64,000 nucleotides of DNA from an uncultured Gemmatimonadales bacterium (GTDB taxonomy: Bacteria; Gemmatimonadota; Gemmatimonadetes; Longimicrobiales; Gaopeijiaceae). The stretch covers positions 576,001-640,000 of the forward strand of contig CAWELD010000010.1 in assembly GCA_963809895.1 (NCBI GenBank). Reading direction: 5' to 3'. Made by a program: the position numbers and the translations under genes. How positions within the stretch are numbered: position 1 is the stretch's first letter; each line of letters opens with the position of its first letter. Below the pieces are notes generated by a model. The model saw only the letters and a list, made by a program, of their open reading frames with translations. It searched no databases and was not told where the DNA came from. Below, one piece after another: positions 24,921 through 49,644 of the stretch.

Positions 24921-25910
24921 ATGACGCCGCCGACTCCGCTCGAGACCCTCCGCCGCGCCCTGCGCACCAGGCGCTACAGCTCCAGAACCGAGAAGGCCTA
25001 CGTCGGGTGGGCGAGGCGGTTCCTGCATTTCCACCGGCGCCGCGCGCTGGAGTCGTTGGGCAGGAGAGAGGTGGACGCCTACCTGACGCACCTGGCCGTG
25101 GCGCGCCGCGTGAGCGCGTCCACTCAGAATCAGGCCGCGAGCGCGCTGGTGTTCTTCTTCAAGGCGCTGGGCCGGCCCCTGCCCGGCGGGGGCCGAACGA
25201 TCGTGCGTGCCCGGCGCCCGGCGAGGCTGCCCGAGGTGCTGTCGCCAGGCGAGGTGCGGAGGGTGCTCCGGGAGATGAGCGGGCAGAAGCGCCTTGTGGG
25301 CGCGCTGCTGTACGGCTCCGGATTGCGGCTGAACGAGGCCCTCCGGCTCAGGGTCAAGGATGTACGCCTCGAGCTCCGGGAGCTGGTCATTCGGCAGGCA
25401 AAGGGGCGACGGGACCGGGTCGGCCTCGTGCCGGACCGCCTCCGAGAGCCCCTGGCCCGGCAGATTCGCCGTACCCGCCGCCGGTTCGAGTCCGACCTCC
25501 AGCGAGACGCAGGTTGGGTCGAGCTCCCCCACGCCCTCGAACGCAAATCACCCCGACTCGCCCGATCGTTCGGCTGGCAGTTCATCTTCGGTTCCAGCCG
25601 TCTCAAGAAGGATCCCAGAACCCGCCGCCTCACCCGCCCCCCCATGCACCCCAGCGCCATGCAGCGGGCCGTGAAGGTGGCCGCCCGCCGCGCGGGTATC
25701 GACCGCCGCGTCACCTGCCACACCTTCCGCCATTCCTTCGCCACCCACCTGCTCCGTAGCGGTTACGACATCCGAACCGTCCAGGAGCTCCTCGGCCACA
25801 AGAGCGTCCGCACCACCATGATCTACACCCACGTTCTCAACCGCCCCGGCCTCGGCATCATCAGCCCCCTGGACCGTATGGGCGAGGAGGGCGAGGAGGG
25901 CGAGGAGTAG
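24921..25910 (+). CDS. intI: Integron integrase (tyrosine recombinase)
   Basis: [17 protein letters not shown], integron-specific insertion [49 protein letters not shown]; adjacent attC array. Confidence 0.97.
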
Positions 25911-26111: not shown

Positions 26112-26197
26112 TGCGGACGCCGCAAGTTGATCAGAGTTCGCTTCTCTCTGTGCTGCGGACGCGGCGCTGCGGGAGGGTTGGGTAAAGCTCGTTAGGC
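26112..26197 (+). other. Putative attI site
   Basis: GTTAGGC core at 26191-26197 before the first cassette, with no attC arm upstream; direct repeat TGCGGACGC at 26112 and 26154; GTTAG-GCAGTATGC partly complements the end of cassette 1. Confidence 0.6.
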
Positions 26198-28052: not shown

Positions 28053-28111
28053 CGATTCGACCACGAAGTATCGCGCCGGATCGCGCGGCCCGTGCCGTTC
28101 GCGGGGGCGCA

Positions 28112-28230
28112 CTCTAACAGGGGTTTGAACCTGACGGAGTAGGCGTGAAGGTCGGACGGTTGTTCGGCTTGCACCTCACAACCGCCGGTTGGCATGTTGC
28201 TCCCGCAGGTTAAACCCAAATCCGTTAGAC
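28112..28230 (+). repeat. attC (family B)
   Basis: CTCTAACAGGGGTTTGAACCTG..CAGGTTAAACCC..GTTAGAC. Confidence 0.92.
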
Positions 28231-28263
28231 AGCGATCGATGGGCGATGAAGGAGGCATGCAGT

Positions 28264-29370
28264 ATGAAGACATGGGCCGCTGGGTTCCTGACGGCACTGG
28301 CCATGGTGCCTTCGGACTCTTCAGCGCAAGATGTCAGCCTCCTTTGGGAGTACGGCTCGGAGGCCAACGGCCCCGAAGCCGTTTGGCAATCAATCACTGA
28401 CGCGCAGCTGTGGCGGGGCGAGATCTACGTGCTGGATACGCGCGCCCCCTTGGTTCGGCGCCTGAGTCAGAGCGGCCAGTTCCTGGGCGAGTTGGGTAGG
28501 CGTGGTCAAGGGCCCGGTGAGTTTGCCGTCCCGTTGGGACTCCACGCCTCCGCCGAGGGCCTTATCGTATTCGACGGGGCACCTCCGCGCTGTACGTGGT
28601 TTGACAGCGCAGGAAGGGCCACCAGAACCTCCGCTACCGAGCTTCCCACCGGCTACTCTCTCTTGGCTTGGAGCCAGTCGTTCGATAACGGATGGATCGT
28701 TGGGGCGACGCCCATCATTCAGACTCCCGATGGACGTGACTCTATGCAGCGCGTGCTCGCTTGGAGGGACCCGGATGACCTCCGAGTCCTTGCCGAGTTT
28801 AGATCGCTGGCAGTGGTTGGACGTCTGGGCCAGAATCTCCACCCAACTGCGCTGGCGCCGAAGGCAGGCCCCACTGGCGCCGCGGCGTTGCTCGGTGATT
28901 CGCTCGTGGTGGTCGTAGACGAGTCGGACGGTTTGCGGGTGTTTGGCATCGCACAGGACGGTCCCCAGGTGCGGGCTCGAATCCCCCTCCCAGGGCGGGG
29001 TGGGACGCTCTCGGGCCGAGCTCGCGACCAACTCATGGATAGCGCGGTTTCGAGGCTGGGCGGGGCGATCGCGGTGTCCGACGTCGTTGCCCCAGATCAT
29101 TGGTCGGGCTGGGTCGATGTGGAGGTGGAGGATGTTGGTGTAGTCTGGGTGCGGCGGGGTGGTGGGTTTGGACGAATCAGTTTCGGCGATCATGAGATTG
29201 GTCCGCGGCAGCATTGGGTCAGGGTGCCCCTGGCAGGCGGCCCGCGGGCGGAGATCACGCTGCCGATCGGCGTCGAGGCGATAGGGTTCGCACCCGGCTT
29301 CATCTTCGCTCGTCGCATCGGGGTCTATGGCGAGCAGTATTTCCAGGTCTATTCGGTCGCCCTTCCGTAG
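28264..29370 (+). CDS. Secreted 6-bladed beta-propeller protein
   Basis: Signal peptide; LGRRGQGPGEF motif. Confidence 0.75.
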   Translation: MKTWAAGFLTALAMVPSDSSAQDVSLLWEYGSEANGPEAVWQSITDAQLWRGEIYVLDTRAPLVRRLSQSGQFLGELGRRGQGPGEFAVPLGLHASAEGLIVFDGAPPRCTWFDSAGRATRTSATELPTGYSLLAWSQSFDNGWIVGATPIIQTPDGRDSMQRVLAWRDPDDLRVLAEFRSLAVVGRLGQNLHPTALAPKAGPTGAAALLGDSLVVVVDESDGLRVFGIAQDGPQVRARIPLPGRGGTLSGRARDQLMDSAVSRLGGAIAVSDVVAPDHWSGWVDVEVEDVGVVWVRRGGGFGRISFGDHEIGPRQHWVRVPLAGGPRAEITLPIGVEAIGFAPGFIFARRIGVYGEQYFQVYSVALP

Positions 29371-29454
29371 TCGGCCGCCGGATCGAGGCCCGCTGTCTAA
29401 CCAGCGTATCTGGACTCCCCCGACAGCAGTGCGCAAGTCGGACAGATAGCAGAG

Positions 29455-29640
29455 AGGGTCGACTGCAGTCGTATCTCCGGCCCTTGGGTGGGCGCATTCA
29501 GTTGGCCCTGGCCACGATGGAAAGTCGCGCGTGGGGTGCCTATCGATTTCACGGCCCTGGAGGCGCACGTTTGTTATCGGCTCCTCCCCACGCCGGTCCG
29601 CCCGGTCTGCCATCGATGTCGTCTCAACGCAGTTCGTCGA
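29455..29640 (-). ncRNA. Predicted bridge/seek RNA of the IS1111 element (ends approximate)
   Basis: Two stem-bounded loops carrying matches to the attC target halves and the donor junction halves. Confidence 0.7.
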
Positions 29641-29681
29641 TTCAGATCCTCCTTGTTCTGAGTGGCGGGCGTGTGTGATGC

Positions 29682-30704
29682 CTACGCGGCGTGCCGCGGC
29701 TCGAAGTCCCGTTGGTCCCGCCACACTCTCCAGGCGACACGGGCGAGCTTATTGGCAAGCGCGACGGCGGCCAGGTTGAAGTTCTTCCGGTTCTTGAGCT
29801 CCAAGGCCCAGGTGCGGAGGTCGTCCGGTTCGTCGGCCACCATCCCGGCGCGCAGGGCCGAGCGAGCCCCGTGGATGAGGAGCATGCGGAGGTAGGTGTT
29901 GCCGCGCTTGGTGATGCGGCCCAGTCGTCGAACCGCTCCGGAGCTGTGCTCCCGCGGTGTGAGCCCGAGATAGTCCGCGAAGCTCCGGCACGAAGGGAAG
30001 CGCTGCACGTCGCCGACGAAGGCGACCATCGCGGTGGCGGTGAGCATCCCGATCCCGGGTACGCTCATCAGATGGCGGGCGTCGGGCATGTGATGGGTTA
30101 GCCGCTCCAAACGCTGCTCGATGTCCTTGGCCCGAGCCGCGAGGCGTTCAATGTCGTCGAGCAACTCGAGCAGCACCCCGCCGAGCAAGTCCGGCACCGC
30201 CCCCTGCGTGAGCGCCGAGCGCGCGAAAGGAACCACCTTCCTCGCACCGGCGGGGATGTTCACTCCGTACTCGCGAAGGTGACCTCGAACCGCGTTGATG
30301 CGTGCCGTCCGGGTCTGCAGGTAGCCGGAGCGGATCCGGTGCAGGGCTGCCATGGCCTGCTGCTCTTCGGACTTCACGGGCACCGCATCGATGGCCCGAT
30401 TCCTCGAAGCCTCCAGCAACGCCTTGGTGTCGGTCCGGTCTGTCTTGTTGCCGTCCCTATACCGACGGACATCCCCAGCCGGCAGCAGACGCACCTGGTG
30501 GCCCATGGCTCGACACTCTCGGCCCCAGTAGTGCGCCGTGCCGCAGGCCTCCATCAGGATCTCCGACGGTGCCTGTGTCTCCAGGAACCGCCGGAACCCG
30601 GATCGATTGAGCCGCCGGTGCTCGGTGACTTGCCCCACCTCGTGCGATACCGCGATCTCGAACACGCTCTTTGCCAGATCCACTGCCACCTGCGTAGTCT
30701 TCAT
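29682..30704 (-). CDS. IS110-family transposase/recombinase
   Basis: VAVDLAKSVF, MEACG, KTDRTD (DEDD); SVPGIG, LGLTPREHSSG, GRITKRGNTYLR, VALANKLAR. Confidence 0.96.
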   Translation of the reverse strand: MKTTQVAVDLAKSVFEIAVSHEVGQVTEHRRLNRSGFRRFLETQAPSEILMEACGTAHYWGRECRAMGHQVRLLPAGDVRRYRDGNKTDRTDTKALLEASRNRAIDAVPVKSEEQQAMAALHRIRSGYLQTRTARINAVRGHLREYGVNIPAGARKVVPFARSALTQGAVPDLLGGVLLELLDDIERLAARAKDIEQRLERLTHHMPDARHLMSVPGIGMLTATAMVAFVGDVQRFPSCRSFADYLGLTPREHSSGAVRRLGRITKRGNTYLRMLLIHGARSALRAGMVADEPDDLRTWALELKNRKNFNLAAVALANKLARVAWRVWRDQRDFEPRHAA

Positions 30705-30911
30705 CGGGACTCCTCCTTCGGGCTTGGCCTTCGGGGCCGTTCGTGTCAGTGGCAGAGTGCTGCCACTCCGGAGGGGGAGTCCATCCCATCAATTCCTACT
30801 GCGTGCTCAACGACCGAAAGGGTCGCGCGCGAGGCGCGCGGTCGACATCATGAGGCACGCAGCAGAGTCGCAAATTCGTTATGTGGTCGTCGTCAGCCTG
30901 AAGAAGACACC

Positions 30912-39952: not shown

Positions 39953-41431
39953 ATGGTTCCGTGTAGAGCACCACTCGCAACGCTAGTGCTTGGGTTCGCA
40001 GTAGTGGCATCCGTGTCCTGCGTAAATGCCCAGGGAGTTTCATCCGTTGCAGAGTCAATCGATTCGTTGATGACCAGCCTCAATGACCAGGGGTACTTCG
40101 TAAGTGGGGCAGTCGTCGCGGGGAGGGGAGACGAGATCTTGTACGAACGCGGCTTCGGTCTCGCGAACGTGGCCGAAGGCGTGCCGTTCACGCCTGACAC
40201 GCCTGCCCACGGCGCGTCCCTGGCGAAGACGCTGACGGCGACCGCGATCCTGATGCTCGACGAGGAAGGTCGCCTTCGCCTCGACGACCCCGTGACAGAG
40301 TACCTCCCCGAGTTCCCGTATCCGGAGATCGAGGTCCGGCATCTGCTCGATCACAGCTCTGGGTTGCTCCCCGATGGACCGCTGCTGGCCATGGCGCCGC
40401 GTGGCGAAGAGCACACCAACCAGCTGCTGCTGGATCTCCTGGTCGAGCACGCCCCGCCGCTCGCGTTCACCCCGGGGACAGGCTTCCTGTACAGCGCCGG
40501 CTCCGTCATCGCGGCGACCCTGGTCGAGCGCGTCACCGGCGTGTCGTATGCCTCCTTCTTGCGGGAGCGGATCTTCGAACCCCTGGATATGGATGCGTCC
40601 TTCGTCCGTGTGGCCGAGGCGGAGGACTCGAGTCGTGTTCGAACACTCGGCTACCGCCGGTCGCCCGACGGCACGCTCGAACTCTTCGACGAGCCGGCGA
40701 ACCGCCATGTGTATGGCGGCACCGGGATCGACTACTCGACTCGCGATCTCTACCGTTGGGTCTCCTCGTTCTACGCGAGGCCCCTCCTGGGCGAGAGCGC
40801 GCTGCGAGCCGGTCTCGAGGCCCCGGACCTGGGCGAAGGGCAGCGGTCCGGCATCACCCTCCTGAACTGGTACCACCCCGAAAGCGGGCGGCGCTTCTAC
40901 TTCACCGGTGACAGCTACGGCTTCTACACCTTCGCGTACTGGGACGCCGATCGCCGACACGCCTTCGTCTACATGAGCAACACGCTCCTGCCGAACTGGT
41001 TGCGGCCGAGGCTGGCGATGGCGTTGGTCGACATTCTGGAAGGCCGTCATCCCGCGTTGATCGAGGATCCTCACTACGCCATTGCAGGCGTACCCTCCGG
41101 GTCCTGGGACCTGTACGCCGGGGTACCGTCACTCGACGACTTTGCCCCAGCCTTGGGCGAATACGAGATGACTCCGGCAGGCAGGGTGTCCATTGAGAAT
41201 CCTCCTCCAAACTGGCTGAACATCGGCTGGATGATCCCGGATGGATGGTTCACTCCGGTCGTCCAAGTGAACGGGGGGCTGACGTTAAACTTGTTTCCGG
41301 TGGAGCCCGGGATGTTCTACGTCCCCGGTCTCGACGCCTGGGTTGGGTTCACAGAGAGCGACGGGGAACCGACGCTCCACTGGACGCAGGTGTTCAAGGG
41401 CACGAGTACGGGCACGCGCATGGAGGAGTAA
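39953..41431 (+). CDS. Serine hydrolase (class C beta-lactamase-like fold)
   Basis: ASLAK (SxxK), LLDHSSGL, FTPGTGFLYS. Confidence 0.88.
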   Translation: MVPCRAPLATLVLGFAVVASVSCVNAQGVSSVAESIDSLMTSLNDQGYFVSGAVVAGRGDEILYERGFGLANVAEGVPFTPDTPAHGASLAKTLTATAILMLDEEGRLRLDDPVTEYLPEFPYPEIEVRHLLDHSSGLLPDGPLLAMAPRGEEHTNQLLLDLLVEHAPPLAFTPGTGFLYSAGSVIAATLVERVTGVSYASFLRERIFEPLDMDASFVRVAEAEDSSRVRTLGYRRSPDGTLELFDEPANRHVYGGTGIDYSTRDLYRWVSSFYARPLLGESALRAGLEAPDLGEGQRSGITLLNWYHPESGRRFYFTGDSYGFYTFAYWDADRRHAFVYMSNTLLPNWLRPRLAMALVDILEGRHPALIEDPHYAIAGVPSGSWDLYAGVPSLDDFAPALGEYEMTPAGRVSIENPPPNWLNIGWMIPDGWFTPVVQVNGGLTLNLFPVEPGMFYVPGLDAWVGFTESDGEPTLHWTQVFKGTSTGTRMEE

Positions 41432-42802: not shown

Positions 42803-43118
42803 CGAGTCGCTGCCGCGCACCCTGGCGCGGCACTTCGCCAAGCTCGAGGTCCAGACGGTATACGAGCGCGGTTGGGCAGGGCTGAAGAACGGCGAGTTGC
42901 TGGCCGAGGCGTCTGGAGACTTCGATGTCTTCGTGACGGCGGACCAGAACCTCCAGTATCAGCAGAACTTGTCGGGCACGTCGCTCCGAGTTGTCGTCCT
43001 CGCAGCGGTCTCGAACCGAGTTCCGGACCTCTTGCCCCTCGTTCCGTACGCGGAGATGGTAGTTGAAGGGATGCAGCCTGGCGAGGTCCGAACTGTGAAT
43101 GGGCGAGCCGCTTCTTAA
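42786..43118 (+). CDS. DUF5615 PIN-like toxin
   Basis: LLDESLP, GWAGLKNGELL, FVTADQNLQYQQN. Confidence 0.88.
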   Translation: MRALLDESLPRTLARHFAKLEVQTVYERGWAGLKNGELLAEASGDFDVFVTADQNLQYQQNLSGTSLRVVVLAAVSNRVPDLLPLVPYAEMVVEGMQPGEVRTVNGRAAS

Positions 43119-43217
43119 CCAGCGATTTCTACTGCGTGCTCAACGATCGAAAGGGTCGCGCGCGAGCCGCGCGGTCGGCATGATGAGGCACGCAGTAGAA
43201 TCGCAAATTCGTTAGAC
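43113..43217 (+). repeat. attC (family A), uninterrupted, with the best match to the IS guides
   Basis: TCTTAACCAGCGATTTCTACTGCG..GTTAGAC. Confidence 0.92.
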
Positions 43218-43236
43218 GGCGGAGAAGGACCACGAG

Positions 43237-44586
43237 ATGCCTTTGAGGCGGACTCTAGGCGGGCTTTGCGCACTTCTCATGGTGAGCGCGGGGTGCTGGG
43301 CCCGGAGTGAAACTCGGTCGTCAGTGAACCGGGCGACGGCCCTGCGCATCGACAGCGTCGCAGCGGCGTTCATGCAGCGCCGATCTGTTCCCGGGCTGTC
43401 GATAGCAATCGCCTCGCGGGGGCGGCTCCTTTACGCCCACGGATACGGGATCGCGGCGCTGACGGGCGATCGTGCGGGGCCCGTTACCTCGCATACGGTC
43501 TTCGAACTGGGCTCGATCAAGAAGCCGATTACGGCGGCCGCCGTACTTCAACTCACGCAGCGGCGGCTGGTCGGTCTGGATGACCCTGCGGACCGATGGA
43601 TCGGTCGCATCAGGACGGAGGAGCAATCTGTGCGCGTGCGCGATATGCTCAATCAGGTATCCGGCCTGCCTGATGGCGACGACACCGCGGTGATACGGAA
43701 ACTGGACTTCGAGCCAGGTACCAGATGGGCATACCGAAACGCCAATTTCGACCTCCTGGACGTACTCGTGCAGGAAGCGACGGGAGAGCACTTCGGAGAC
43801 TACCTGAGGACCTCGATGATGGTCCCGCTGGGCTTGCCTACGTTGGGGATGTGCGATCCGGATAACCCTCAGACGGTTGAAATGGCGCAGGGGTACACGC
43901 GCCGGGGCGGGACCTTCCAACCGGTTGCGGACGCGTGCTGGCTCCGTGGCACGCCGAGCGACGTAGCGTTGTGGGCCGATGCTCTCTTCGGGGGGCGCAT
44001 CGTGGGGCAACAGGAACTGAGGGAGATGACGACCCCGGCCACTCTGAAGGATGGCACGAAGACCGACTACGGGTTTGGCCTCCGTCTGCTGCCGATTCAC
44101 GGCATCGAGCGTCTATCACACACGGGACATGTCGACGGCTTCACTGCTTCCTTCGGTTACTATCCGGCGGCCGACTTGGCAGTCGCTGTAGCGGGCAACT
44201 CCGATTCGTTGTTCGATCCCGATGCGGTGGAGGTGGCTATTGCCATGGTTCTCCTCGGCGTAGCGCCGTTCCGGCCGGAGGTCGTGAGCATAGGCGACGC
44301 CGAGCGGTTTCGTGGAGTCTACGACGCGGGCGAGGTCTGGTTCTTGATTGGGGGCGCCGGCGGCGACTCGCTCACGCTCAGCATGACCCCGGCCGAGGAT
44401 AACGCCACCCCCTACCTGGTGACGCGACTGGTGAGGGTCGGGGAGGCCCGGTACGTCGGGGCTGACTCTCCGGATGTAGTCGGAGCGCAGTTCTTGAATC
44501 CAAGAGGCGGCGAGGTGCCCGACAGGGTCGTCGTCGATGCCGTCGGCATCCCGTGGGCAGCGACCCGGCGCTCGAAGGCACGTTGA
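43237..44586 (+). CDS. Serine hydrolase (beta-lactamase fold)
   Basis: GSIKK (SxxK), YRN, HTG. Confidence 0.88.
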   Translation: MPLRRTLGGLCALLMVSAGCWARSETRSSVNRATALRIDSVAAAFMQRRSVPGLSIAIASRGRLLYAHGYGIAALTGDRAGPVTSHTVFELGSIKKPITAAAVLQLTQRRLVGLDDPADRWIGRIRTEEQSVRVRDMLNQVSGLPDGDDTAVIRKLDFEPGTRWAYRNANFDLLDVLVQEATGEHFGDYLRTSMMVPLGLPTLGMCDPDNPQTVEMAQGYTRRGGTFQPVADACWLRGTPSDVALWADALFGGRIVGQQELREMTTPATLKDGTKTDYGFGLRLLPIHGIERLSHTGHVDGFTASFGYYPAADLAVAVAGNSDSLFDPDAVEVAIAMVLLGVAPFRPEVVSIGDAERFRGVYDAGEVWFLIGGAGGDSLTLSMTPAEDNATPYLVTRLVRVGEARYVGADSPDVVGAQFLNPRGGEVPDRVVVDAVGIPWAATRRSKAR

Positions 44587-44595
44587 CGTTCCGCC

Positions 44596-44710
44596 GTCTA
44601 ACAGGGGTTTGCTGCTGACAGGGTAAGCTGCGAGGTCCGACAGCACTCGCCTGGCGGCTCGCGCTGCAGGTCGGCATGATGCTCCTGCAAGAAACCCAGA
44701 GTCGTTAGAG
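44596..44710 (+). repeat. attC (family C)
   Basis: GTCTAAC..GTTAGAG. Confidence 0.9.
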
Positions 44711-44731
44711 CGCAGTTGGCAGGCGAAGTGA

Positions 44732-48485: not shown

Positions 48486-49644
48486 CCCTAACCAGCGTAT
48501 CTGGACTCCCCCGACAGTCGGATGTTGTCCGGAGCGTAGTTGAAGGTGGTGGCTCCGGGCTGCTCCTTGATTAGCCGGCAATGCTCACCTCGGCAAGGGT
48601 GTCCTCGCGCTCGAGCCAGAGGGCGAGCTGCTCGAGCTTCTGCGTGCCCTCGCTCGCCTCGAGCTTCACCGCCGCCCGGAAGGCCGACTTCACCTGCGCG
48701 TGCTGGTCCCTGGGCAGGTGTCCCGTGAGGTTGCGCAGCTTGTGGTTGCGGCAGCGCTGGACCAGGTCCTCGAGCAGGGCGGTGGCCACCTCCGCGTTCT
48801 CGCTCGCGCCCTCCCGCAGGCCGAGCACGTGCTTCCGCCCCTCGTTGTCCACGCCCACGGCCGCGAGCACGTGATGATTCCCGAACTGGATCCCGTCCAC
48901 GTAGACGATGAGCAGATCCCAGGCCTCCAGCCGCCGCTCCATGAGCTCCCGGAGCACCGTCTCGCTCGCCTCGATCGCCTCACGGCTCACCGACGACTTG
49001 GCCACGCCCACCGTGTCGGCCATTGCCGGGATCACGTCCGCATAGCGACGCGTGCTCACGCCCGCCAGCAGGATCTCGAGCATCCGCTCCGCCACCGGCC
49101 CAGGCCGTCGCATCGCCTCGTAGGCCGGCATCTCGACCTCGCCTCCCTCGCCCCGGCCCTTCACCCGGAGCCGCGGCCGCTCGACCCGAACCTTCCGGTC
49201 CGACTTGTTGCCGTCCCGGTATCGACGCACATGCCCAGCCGGCAGCAGGCGCACCTGGTGGCCCATGGCTCGACACACTCGGCCCCAGTAGTGCGCCGTG
49301 CCGCATGCCTCCATCAGGATCTCCGACGGTGCCTGGGTCTCCAGGAATCGCCGGAACCCGGATCGATTGAGCCTCCGCTGTTCAGTGACTTGCCCCACCT
49401 CGCGCGATACCGCGATCTCGAACACGCTCTTTGCCAGATCCACTGCCACCTGCGTAGTCTTCATCGGGACTCCTCCTTCGGGCTTGGCCTTCGGGGCCGT
49501 TCGTGTCAGTGGCAGAGTGCTGCCACTCCGGAGGGGGAGTCCATCCCATCAACTGCTACTGCGTGCTCAAAGACCGAAGGGGTCGCGCGCGAGACGCGCG
49601 GTCGACATCATGAGGCACGCGGCAGAATCGCAGATCCGTTAGAC
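48486..49644 (+). repeat. attC (family A) split by the second IS copy
   Basis: CCCTAACCAGCG | IS | ACTGCTACTGCGTGC..GTTAGAC. Confidence 0.9.
48498..49551 (-). mobile_element. Defective IS1111 copy containing an IS256-family remnant
   Basis: Same IRs as 29407-30791; ORF 48571-49464 is the IS110 N-terminal ~90 aa fused to IS256-like GVSTR, YVDG, GRKHVLG, QRCRNHK. Confidence 0.88.

Follow-up and report, generated by a model that had tools for sequence, protein, structure and literature searches.

A candidate two-loop guide RNA in an IS1111-group element inserted into an integron attC site of an uncultured Gemmatimonadales bacterium

Introduction

Insertion sequences of the IS1111 group carry subterminal inverted repeats (sTIRs) with 7- and 3-base extensions, and in the available parts of the report by Siddiquee et al. 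(2024; PMC11187229) their ends are described as abutted, with no target duplication reported. The same source describes the purification of the seekRNAs of the attC-targeting elements ISKpn4 and ISPst6, which were shown to match their targets, the prediction of that of ISPa25 and the reprogramming of that of ISEc11; in those parts, target matches are described without donor matches, whereas donor matches are seen in the element presented here. Bridge RNAs have been predicted in 93% of IS1111s, with donor regions forming multi-loops (Durrant et al., 2024; PMC11208160), and, by the names given, none of the three IS1111 examples of that article targets attC. For IS621, the top strands are cut 3′ of the core (Hiraizumi et al., 2024; PMC11208158) and single-strand excision has been reported, while CazIS110 is described as undergoing top-strand copy-out and insertion (bioRxiv 10.1101/2025.10.25.684509); the two mechanistic reports of such transfer are preprints dealing with IS110-group elements. 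Further work related to these systems is given for IS621 in PMC13626964 and in two preprints (bioRxiv 10.64898/2026.08.31.748434; 10.1101/2024.04.26.591405). Our literature search, which covered abstracts and passages of main text, found no description of a donor loop or of an unshared central dinucleotide in attC-targeting elements, although predictions of this kind may be contained in Supplementary Table 5 of PMC11208160.

The element that we describe resembles ISPa25, ISKpn4, ISPst6 and ISPa21 in its sTIRs with 7-bp and 3-bp extensions, its 340-aa DEDD transposase, its downstream non-coding region (NCR) and its alignable RNA scaffold, and it shares with IS1111-attC elements the R''-side end of attC as insertion site, a gene opposite to the cassette and a CG adjoining the insertion point (Table 1 of PMC13604230). 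It is unlike the named IS1111-attC elements in that its protein identity to them is about 47%. As in the IS621 bridge RNA, its predicted RNA has two loops with four guides ordered LTG-RTG-LDG-RDG, the transposase has a DEDD plus serine active site, and a candidate AU handshake that would pair with donor positions 6-7 (AT) follows the right target guide. Unlike in IS621, the RNA lies downstream of the gene, the sTIRs are long, the donor loop is a multi-loop (as in many IS1111s; Durrant et al., 2024), no donor-loop handshake signal was found, and target and donor do not share their central dinucleotide, whereas the CT core of IS621 is described as invariant. The junction asymmetry of its clade is what top-strand-only transfer, as described for CazIS110-1, predicts; unlike that IS110-group element, which was tested in vitro, ours is read from a genomic pattern alone.

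We suggest, with a probability of roughly 0.9, that positions 29460..29593 constitute the guide (seek/bridge) RNA core of an autonomous IS1111-attC element, working by a mechanism that we infer from its relatives. The initial annotation of this DNA had proposed such a two-loop RNA aimed at attC, and the covariation of its target and donor segments with their partner DNA bears that proposal out.

Results

An intact element and two defective relatives in one cassette array

The element lies in an integron within the window, by which we mean the whole stretch of 64,000 nt that was analysed. The features on which the description depends are the following.

24921..25910, + strand: integron integrase gene heading the cassette array (TIGR02249, 388 bits; cut-off, 265)
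29398..29406, + strand: left half of the interrupted attC, identical in its 9 bases to the start of the empty attC at 43116 and ending in the target-derived CG (29405-29406)
29407..30791, - strand: complete IS1111-group insertion sequence of 1385 bp, its ends set by the rule of 7 bp on the left and 3 bp on the right
29407..29421, - strand: right end, a 12-bp subterminal inverted repeat (29410-29421) with a 3-bp extension
29682..30704, - strand: DEDD transposase gene, 340 aa (Pfam PF01548 and PF02371; NCBIfam NF033542 above its cut-off)
30773..30791, - strand: left end, a 12-bp subterminal inverted repeat (30773-30784) with a 7-bp extension
30792..30882, + strand: right part of the interrupted attC, repeat family D1
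43116..43215, + strand: empty attC, the only site in the genome with at most 2 mismatches to the 14-mer read from the guides
48498..49551, - strand: defective second copy in a family-D1 attC, retaining its two ends and the first ~90 codons
54889..55122, - strand: 234-bp miniature copy with both ends and without transposase

The sTIRs match at 11 of 12 bases and, with their 7- and 3-bp extensions, fall within the 11-13 bp of IS1111 elements; the NCR measures 275 bp downstream of the gene against 87 bp upstream, the long-downstream arrangement of the group. An alignment with ISPa25, ISKpn4 and ISPa21 finds residues D9, E52, D89, D92 and S254 of the transposase all kept, its motif GLTPREHSSG fits the IS1111-group pattern GL-P----S(t)G, and its 340 aa lie within the group's range of 330-350. 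Support for the end at 30791 comes from a contig of sequencing run X2, which diverges from the window just past that position, and the outermost two bases of this left end (30790-30791, CA on the + strand) are element-borne. There is no target duplication: the rejoined flanks give an attC like that at 43116 with a single CG, and the other junction reads CA. Among plasmid matches, the 11 best all belong to the ISPa25, ISPa21 or ISKpn4 families, at 46.6-47.7% protein identity (ISPa25, 47.7%), and the NCRs of ISPa25 and ISKpn4 align motif by motif with that of this element. Judged on these sequence features, it adds an intact member to the IS1111-attC group, for which guide RNAs of this kind had been reported in 2024.

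Both this copy and the second one break a family-D1 attC at the identical base, hence at fixed position and orientation in an integrase-headed array, and the insertion point is one base off the ISKpn4/ISPa25 position. In the second copy, the guide RNA and the remaining gene are replaced by a fragment of a Mutator-family transposase; this IS256-like fragment is in frame with the first ~90 IS1111 codons (ORF 49464-48571), and no further copy of it was found within the assembly. The miniature copy is without exactly the 144 bp that carry both loops (29453-29596 of the first copy); it has ~130 bp of unrelated interior, and its right flank neither resembles an attC nor fits the right target guide. 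No full source for the interiors of the two defective copies was found elsewhere in the assembly, and these relatives share the array of the intact element, with none elsewhere in the assembly.

In most integrons the integrase gene is divergent from the cassette array. Here, the gene at 24921-25910 is co-oriented with the array, and an attI-like GTTAGGC (26191-26197) lies downstream of it. The attC sites of the array (28111-28233, 43113-43222, 44595-44715) apparently have an asymmetric central spacer, of 5 bases between R'' and L'' but ~9 between L' and R', and two cassette genes (39953-41431 and 43237-44586) encode proteins of the serine hydrolase / class C beta-lactamase fold, far under every curated cut-off.

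Covariation data set and chance controls

Homologues were gathered at 131 loci, of which 97 had a right end; RNA scaffold motifs allowed 69 of these to be anchored, and 62 were used, three with doubtful ends (L015, L044, L087) and four with duplicate guides having been removed at the last step. The 28 loci that could not be anchored are mostly distant elements below 41% identity, and viral contigs contributed just 6 distant loci. The anchors were RNA motifs only, but NG was required and CG, AT and CAT/CAG were favoured at guide ends; counts of these letters are thus partly built in by the anchoring rules, whereas the match of a guide to each locus's own DNA is not. Because relatives share history, disjoint nearest pairs were also compared.

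Across the 62 non-redundant homologues, all four segments proposed as guides in the initial annotation covary with their flanking partners (z 6.7-14 against shuffles), and for each of them no shuffle reached the observed value. When the observed numbers of mismatches are allowed, a post-hoc choice, none of 5000 dinucleotide shuffles of the 275-nt region contains the four words in order; singly they appear in 1462, 2328, 1762 and 61 of the 5000, so it is only the ordered set that is unusual.

The 5′ loop and the attC target

29568..29576, - strand: left target guide, predicted from covariation to pair with the attC bottom strand
29542..29550, - strand: right target guide (29550-29546), CG (29545-29544) and candidate AU handshake (29543-29542)

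The left target segment UAACAAACG had been placed correctly at 29576-29568 on the - strand, and its mismatches, put beforehand at one or two, number 2 of 9 whether it is compared with the flank of the element itself or with the empty attC at 43116. GAAAUCG (29550-29544) matches the right half of that attC exactly, as had been noted, and one base of the right target guide is mismatched to the element's flank (30792-30796). When the 14-mer read from both target guides is searched on both strands of the 5.33-Mb assembly, there are no matches at 0-1 mismatches, a single one at 2, which is the empty attC at 43116, and 16 sites at 3.

The left target guide scores 377 against its own partner and 277 against shuffled partners (n=56, z 14.3), and the positions after TAAC alone score 166 against 83 (z 12.4). 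For the right target guide the values are 194 and 110 (n=50, z 11.2), with the signal confined to the five bases adjoining the centre and none at the sixth; sliding this guide by one base changes the in-register z of 11.2 to -1.9 in one direction and 4.1 in the other. Between nearest relatives, a guide fits its own flank rather than its partner's in 18 pairs to 1 (right target guide, p 8e-5) and in 12 to 1 (left target guide, p 0.003). In five of the six loci whose flank lacks the AAC of attC (L003, L051, L079, L099 and L117, but not L112), the left guide is altered to fit its own flank. On this covariation evidence, the two guides of the 5′ loop follow both halves of the attC insertion site.

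The distance from AAC to the central dinucleotide is three bases in this element and in 24/56 loci and four in ISPa25, ISKpn4 and 20/56 loci; it is two in 5/56 and one in 1/56, and AAC is lacking in 6/56. With three spacer bases rather than four, the insertion lies one base nearer the R'' box than those of ISPa25 and ISKpn4. Since this distance runs from 1 to 4 bases while the length of the left guide strand is near-constant, the guide register can slide.

The predicted fold and the 3′ loop

29529..29593, - strand: target-binding domain, with an outer helix (29593-29586/29536-29529) and a loop-closing helix (GCC 29581-29579 / GGC 29540-29538), from RNAalifold and pair counts in 46 homologues
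29465..29528, - strand: donor-binding domain, with a closing helix (GCG 29528-29526 / UGC 29467-29465) and an inner helix (29514-29510/29482-29478)
29514..29523, - strand: left donor guide, matching the left-end extension, by covariation
29469..29476, - strand: right donor guide with CG, matching the right-end extension, by covariation

The consensus fold was obtained with RNAalifold on 46 of the 62 homologues and contains the outer helix (two-sided changes in 6/6 pairs), the GCC/GGC and GCG/UGC helices and the inner helix, with 97.3% of cells paired against 30-45% in slid controls; all four guides are unpaired in it. The stem proposed earlier for loop 1 is this outer helix, with two-sided changes in 7/8 pairs and 89.5% of cells paired over the 46 homologues. 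The stem proposed for loop 2 fared less well: its bases are present where they had been placed, but it is poorly conserved (78.3% paired) and absent from the single-sequence fold, whereas the overlapping GCG/UGC helix is 100% paired; it was probably mis-assigned, with this 3-bp helix closing loop 2. Folding the single sequence, the check suggested in the initial annotation, recovers the loop-1 stem, but the stability is no better than that of shuffles (z -0.04 and -0.08). There is little variation in the short closing helices, which are therefore supported through conservation rather than covariation. A search of 29300-29750 against Rfam gave no match at E <= 1.

The two donor words, CCAUCGU at 29520-29514 and AGAUACGA at 29476-29469, had been located correctly on the - strand. 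The left donor guide scores 290 against its own end and 265 against shuffled ones (n=54, z 6.7); the right one scores 310 against 266 (z 11.0), with 5/5 bases matching in 62/62 loci, variant ends included. Among nearest-relative pairs the left donor guide gives 6:0 (p 0.03) and the right 4:0 (p 0.125), the latter not significant alone; the donor-guide and handshake contrasts comprise few informative pairs (4 and 4) and are not significant alone. The AU that follows the right target guide could pair with donor positions 6-7 at 103/108 bases, a value that 8 of 5000 shuffles reach, with nearest-relative pairs at only 2 against 0; in ISKpn4 and one other relative (L121) it is altered along with the donor, and it does not match its own target. 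The reciprocal donor-loop handshake showed no covariation with target positions 6-7 in the homologue set (z 1.5). The covariation of both donor guides with the element ends agrees with the earlier suggestion that the second loop matches both halves of the donor junction, albeit on few independent contrasts, and as judged from it the two guides of the 3′ multi-loop follow the left and the right end of the element itself.

A simpler arrangement, in which the target loop alone guides, the protein recognises the ends at the sTIRs and the second-loop matches are dispensable, is in our view unlikely. It would suit the long sTIRs of IS1111 elements, the abundant IS1111 RNAs of 82-96 nt and the movement supported by an 82-nt form of the ISEc11 RNA (PMC11187229), and the donor guides vary so little that independent contrasts are few. 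It does not, however, account for a right donor guide that fits its own end at every locus even where that end is a variant, for a left donor guide that changes with its end in nearest relatives, or for the helices framing loop 2, which are 99.6-100% paired. Short seekRNAs sufficed for ISEc11 movement, so that IS1111 elements may not need the second loop; we favour the two-loop guide RNA.

The central dinucleotide

In this RNA all four segments do contain a CG, as the initial annotation had observed, but the DNA junctions do not share it. Of the 52 loci in which both ends are present, 46 have TG as the left-end dinucleotide; nine different dinucleotides occur at the right end (CG 21, TG 11), and left and right are equal in 13 loci; here they are CG on the right and CA on the left. 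Three copies of one relative in genome G355 have CG/CG/CG on the left and TG/TG/CG on the right, and one of these copies directly adjoins another element's right end across its left-end dinucleotide. From the 52-locus counts and the G355 copies we infer that the left-end pair belongs to the element and the right-end pair to the target. A left-end dinucleotide that travels with the element should place CA (+ strand) in the circle; the CG circle junction predicted earlier is not supported by the comparative data.

That prediction belonged to a fuller proposal, in which a CG core is common to target and donor and the right-hand CA is a tolerated or later mismatch. In its favour, besides the four CGs of this RNA, both right guides read CG in 56/62 and 57/62 homologues, counts partly fixed by the anchoring. 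All three copies in the window nevertheless read CA on the left-end side, the left-end TG of relatives holds irrespective of the other end, the left-end pair is constant across the three G355 copies, the dinucleotide of the left donor guide tracks neither end, and ISPa25 has the same CG/CA asymmetry, with no duplication reported for IS1111 elements; a shared CG core is accordingly quite improbable. The dinucleotide of the right donor guide tracks the right-end pair (1/5000 shuffles) better than the left-end pair (66/5000), with very few variant loci.

For a circle itself, four assembled DNA runs (85% likeness) gave no end-to-end joint and no element-spanning piece, data of a kind that cannot show circle absence. 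The element's right end has no good -35 box at the usual distance for a junction promoter; the commonest TTG position in relatives is 20 bases from the right end (22/62), and this element has CTG there.

Discussion

That the guide matches arose by chance or as remnants of conserved scaffold motifs such as GATAAC is refuted by the covariation and the nearest-relative contrasts, for although each word alone is common in shuffles and part of the left guide is near-invariant across the clade, the covariation stays after TAAC is removed and non-attC relatives change guide bases along with their flanks.

Under the two-loop reading, and by analogy with IS621, ISKpn4 and CazIS110, the RNA would be transcribed and bound by the DEDD/Ser transposase, and the element would be copied out into a circle in which its two ends abut. 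The target loop would then locate the R''-side end of an attC, whose top strands would be cut 3′ of the central dinucleotide and exchanged, with the AU handshake aiding the exchange by pairing with donor positions 6-7; the guides may also be open to reprogramming. The presence of the target's CG at the right end and of the element's CA at the left end suggests that transfer is mainly of the top strand, which would leave no duplication and demand no shared core. Two-strand exchange would be expected to swap the dinucleotide pairs half the time, while top-strand-only transfer would give exactly the asymmetry observed; the asymmetry fits equally the description of IS1111 elements as having abutted ends and no duplication.

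We put forward tentatively, and with more doubt than conviction, that the IS1111-attC clade is a coreless bridge system, in which a functional donor loop, unmatched dinucleotides and top-strand transfer would go together and the C of the right donor guide would be tuned to the incoming target base as an extra handshake. If so, the junctions of the clade would form a natural in-genome record of top-strand-only transposition, and the limits on the core would be looser than in IS621.

The locus appears to be one more intact, readable RNA-guided recombinase in a family whose relatives number in the thousands (7922 of 8000 candidates at E <= 1e-40). A donor loop and a target-loop handshake that can be read in attC-targeting IS1111 elements bear on the question of seekRNA versus bridge RNA, and the unshared central dinucleotide bears on whether transfer in IS1111 elements is of the top strand only.

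One relative deserves separate mention. This 64%-identical element (L140; G355:C1:2409900-2413500) lies immediately after the right end of another element. It also has a 120-bp tandem duplication by which its own right end is joined to a TG within its guide RNA; a half-match event involving the donor arm only may have produced this.
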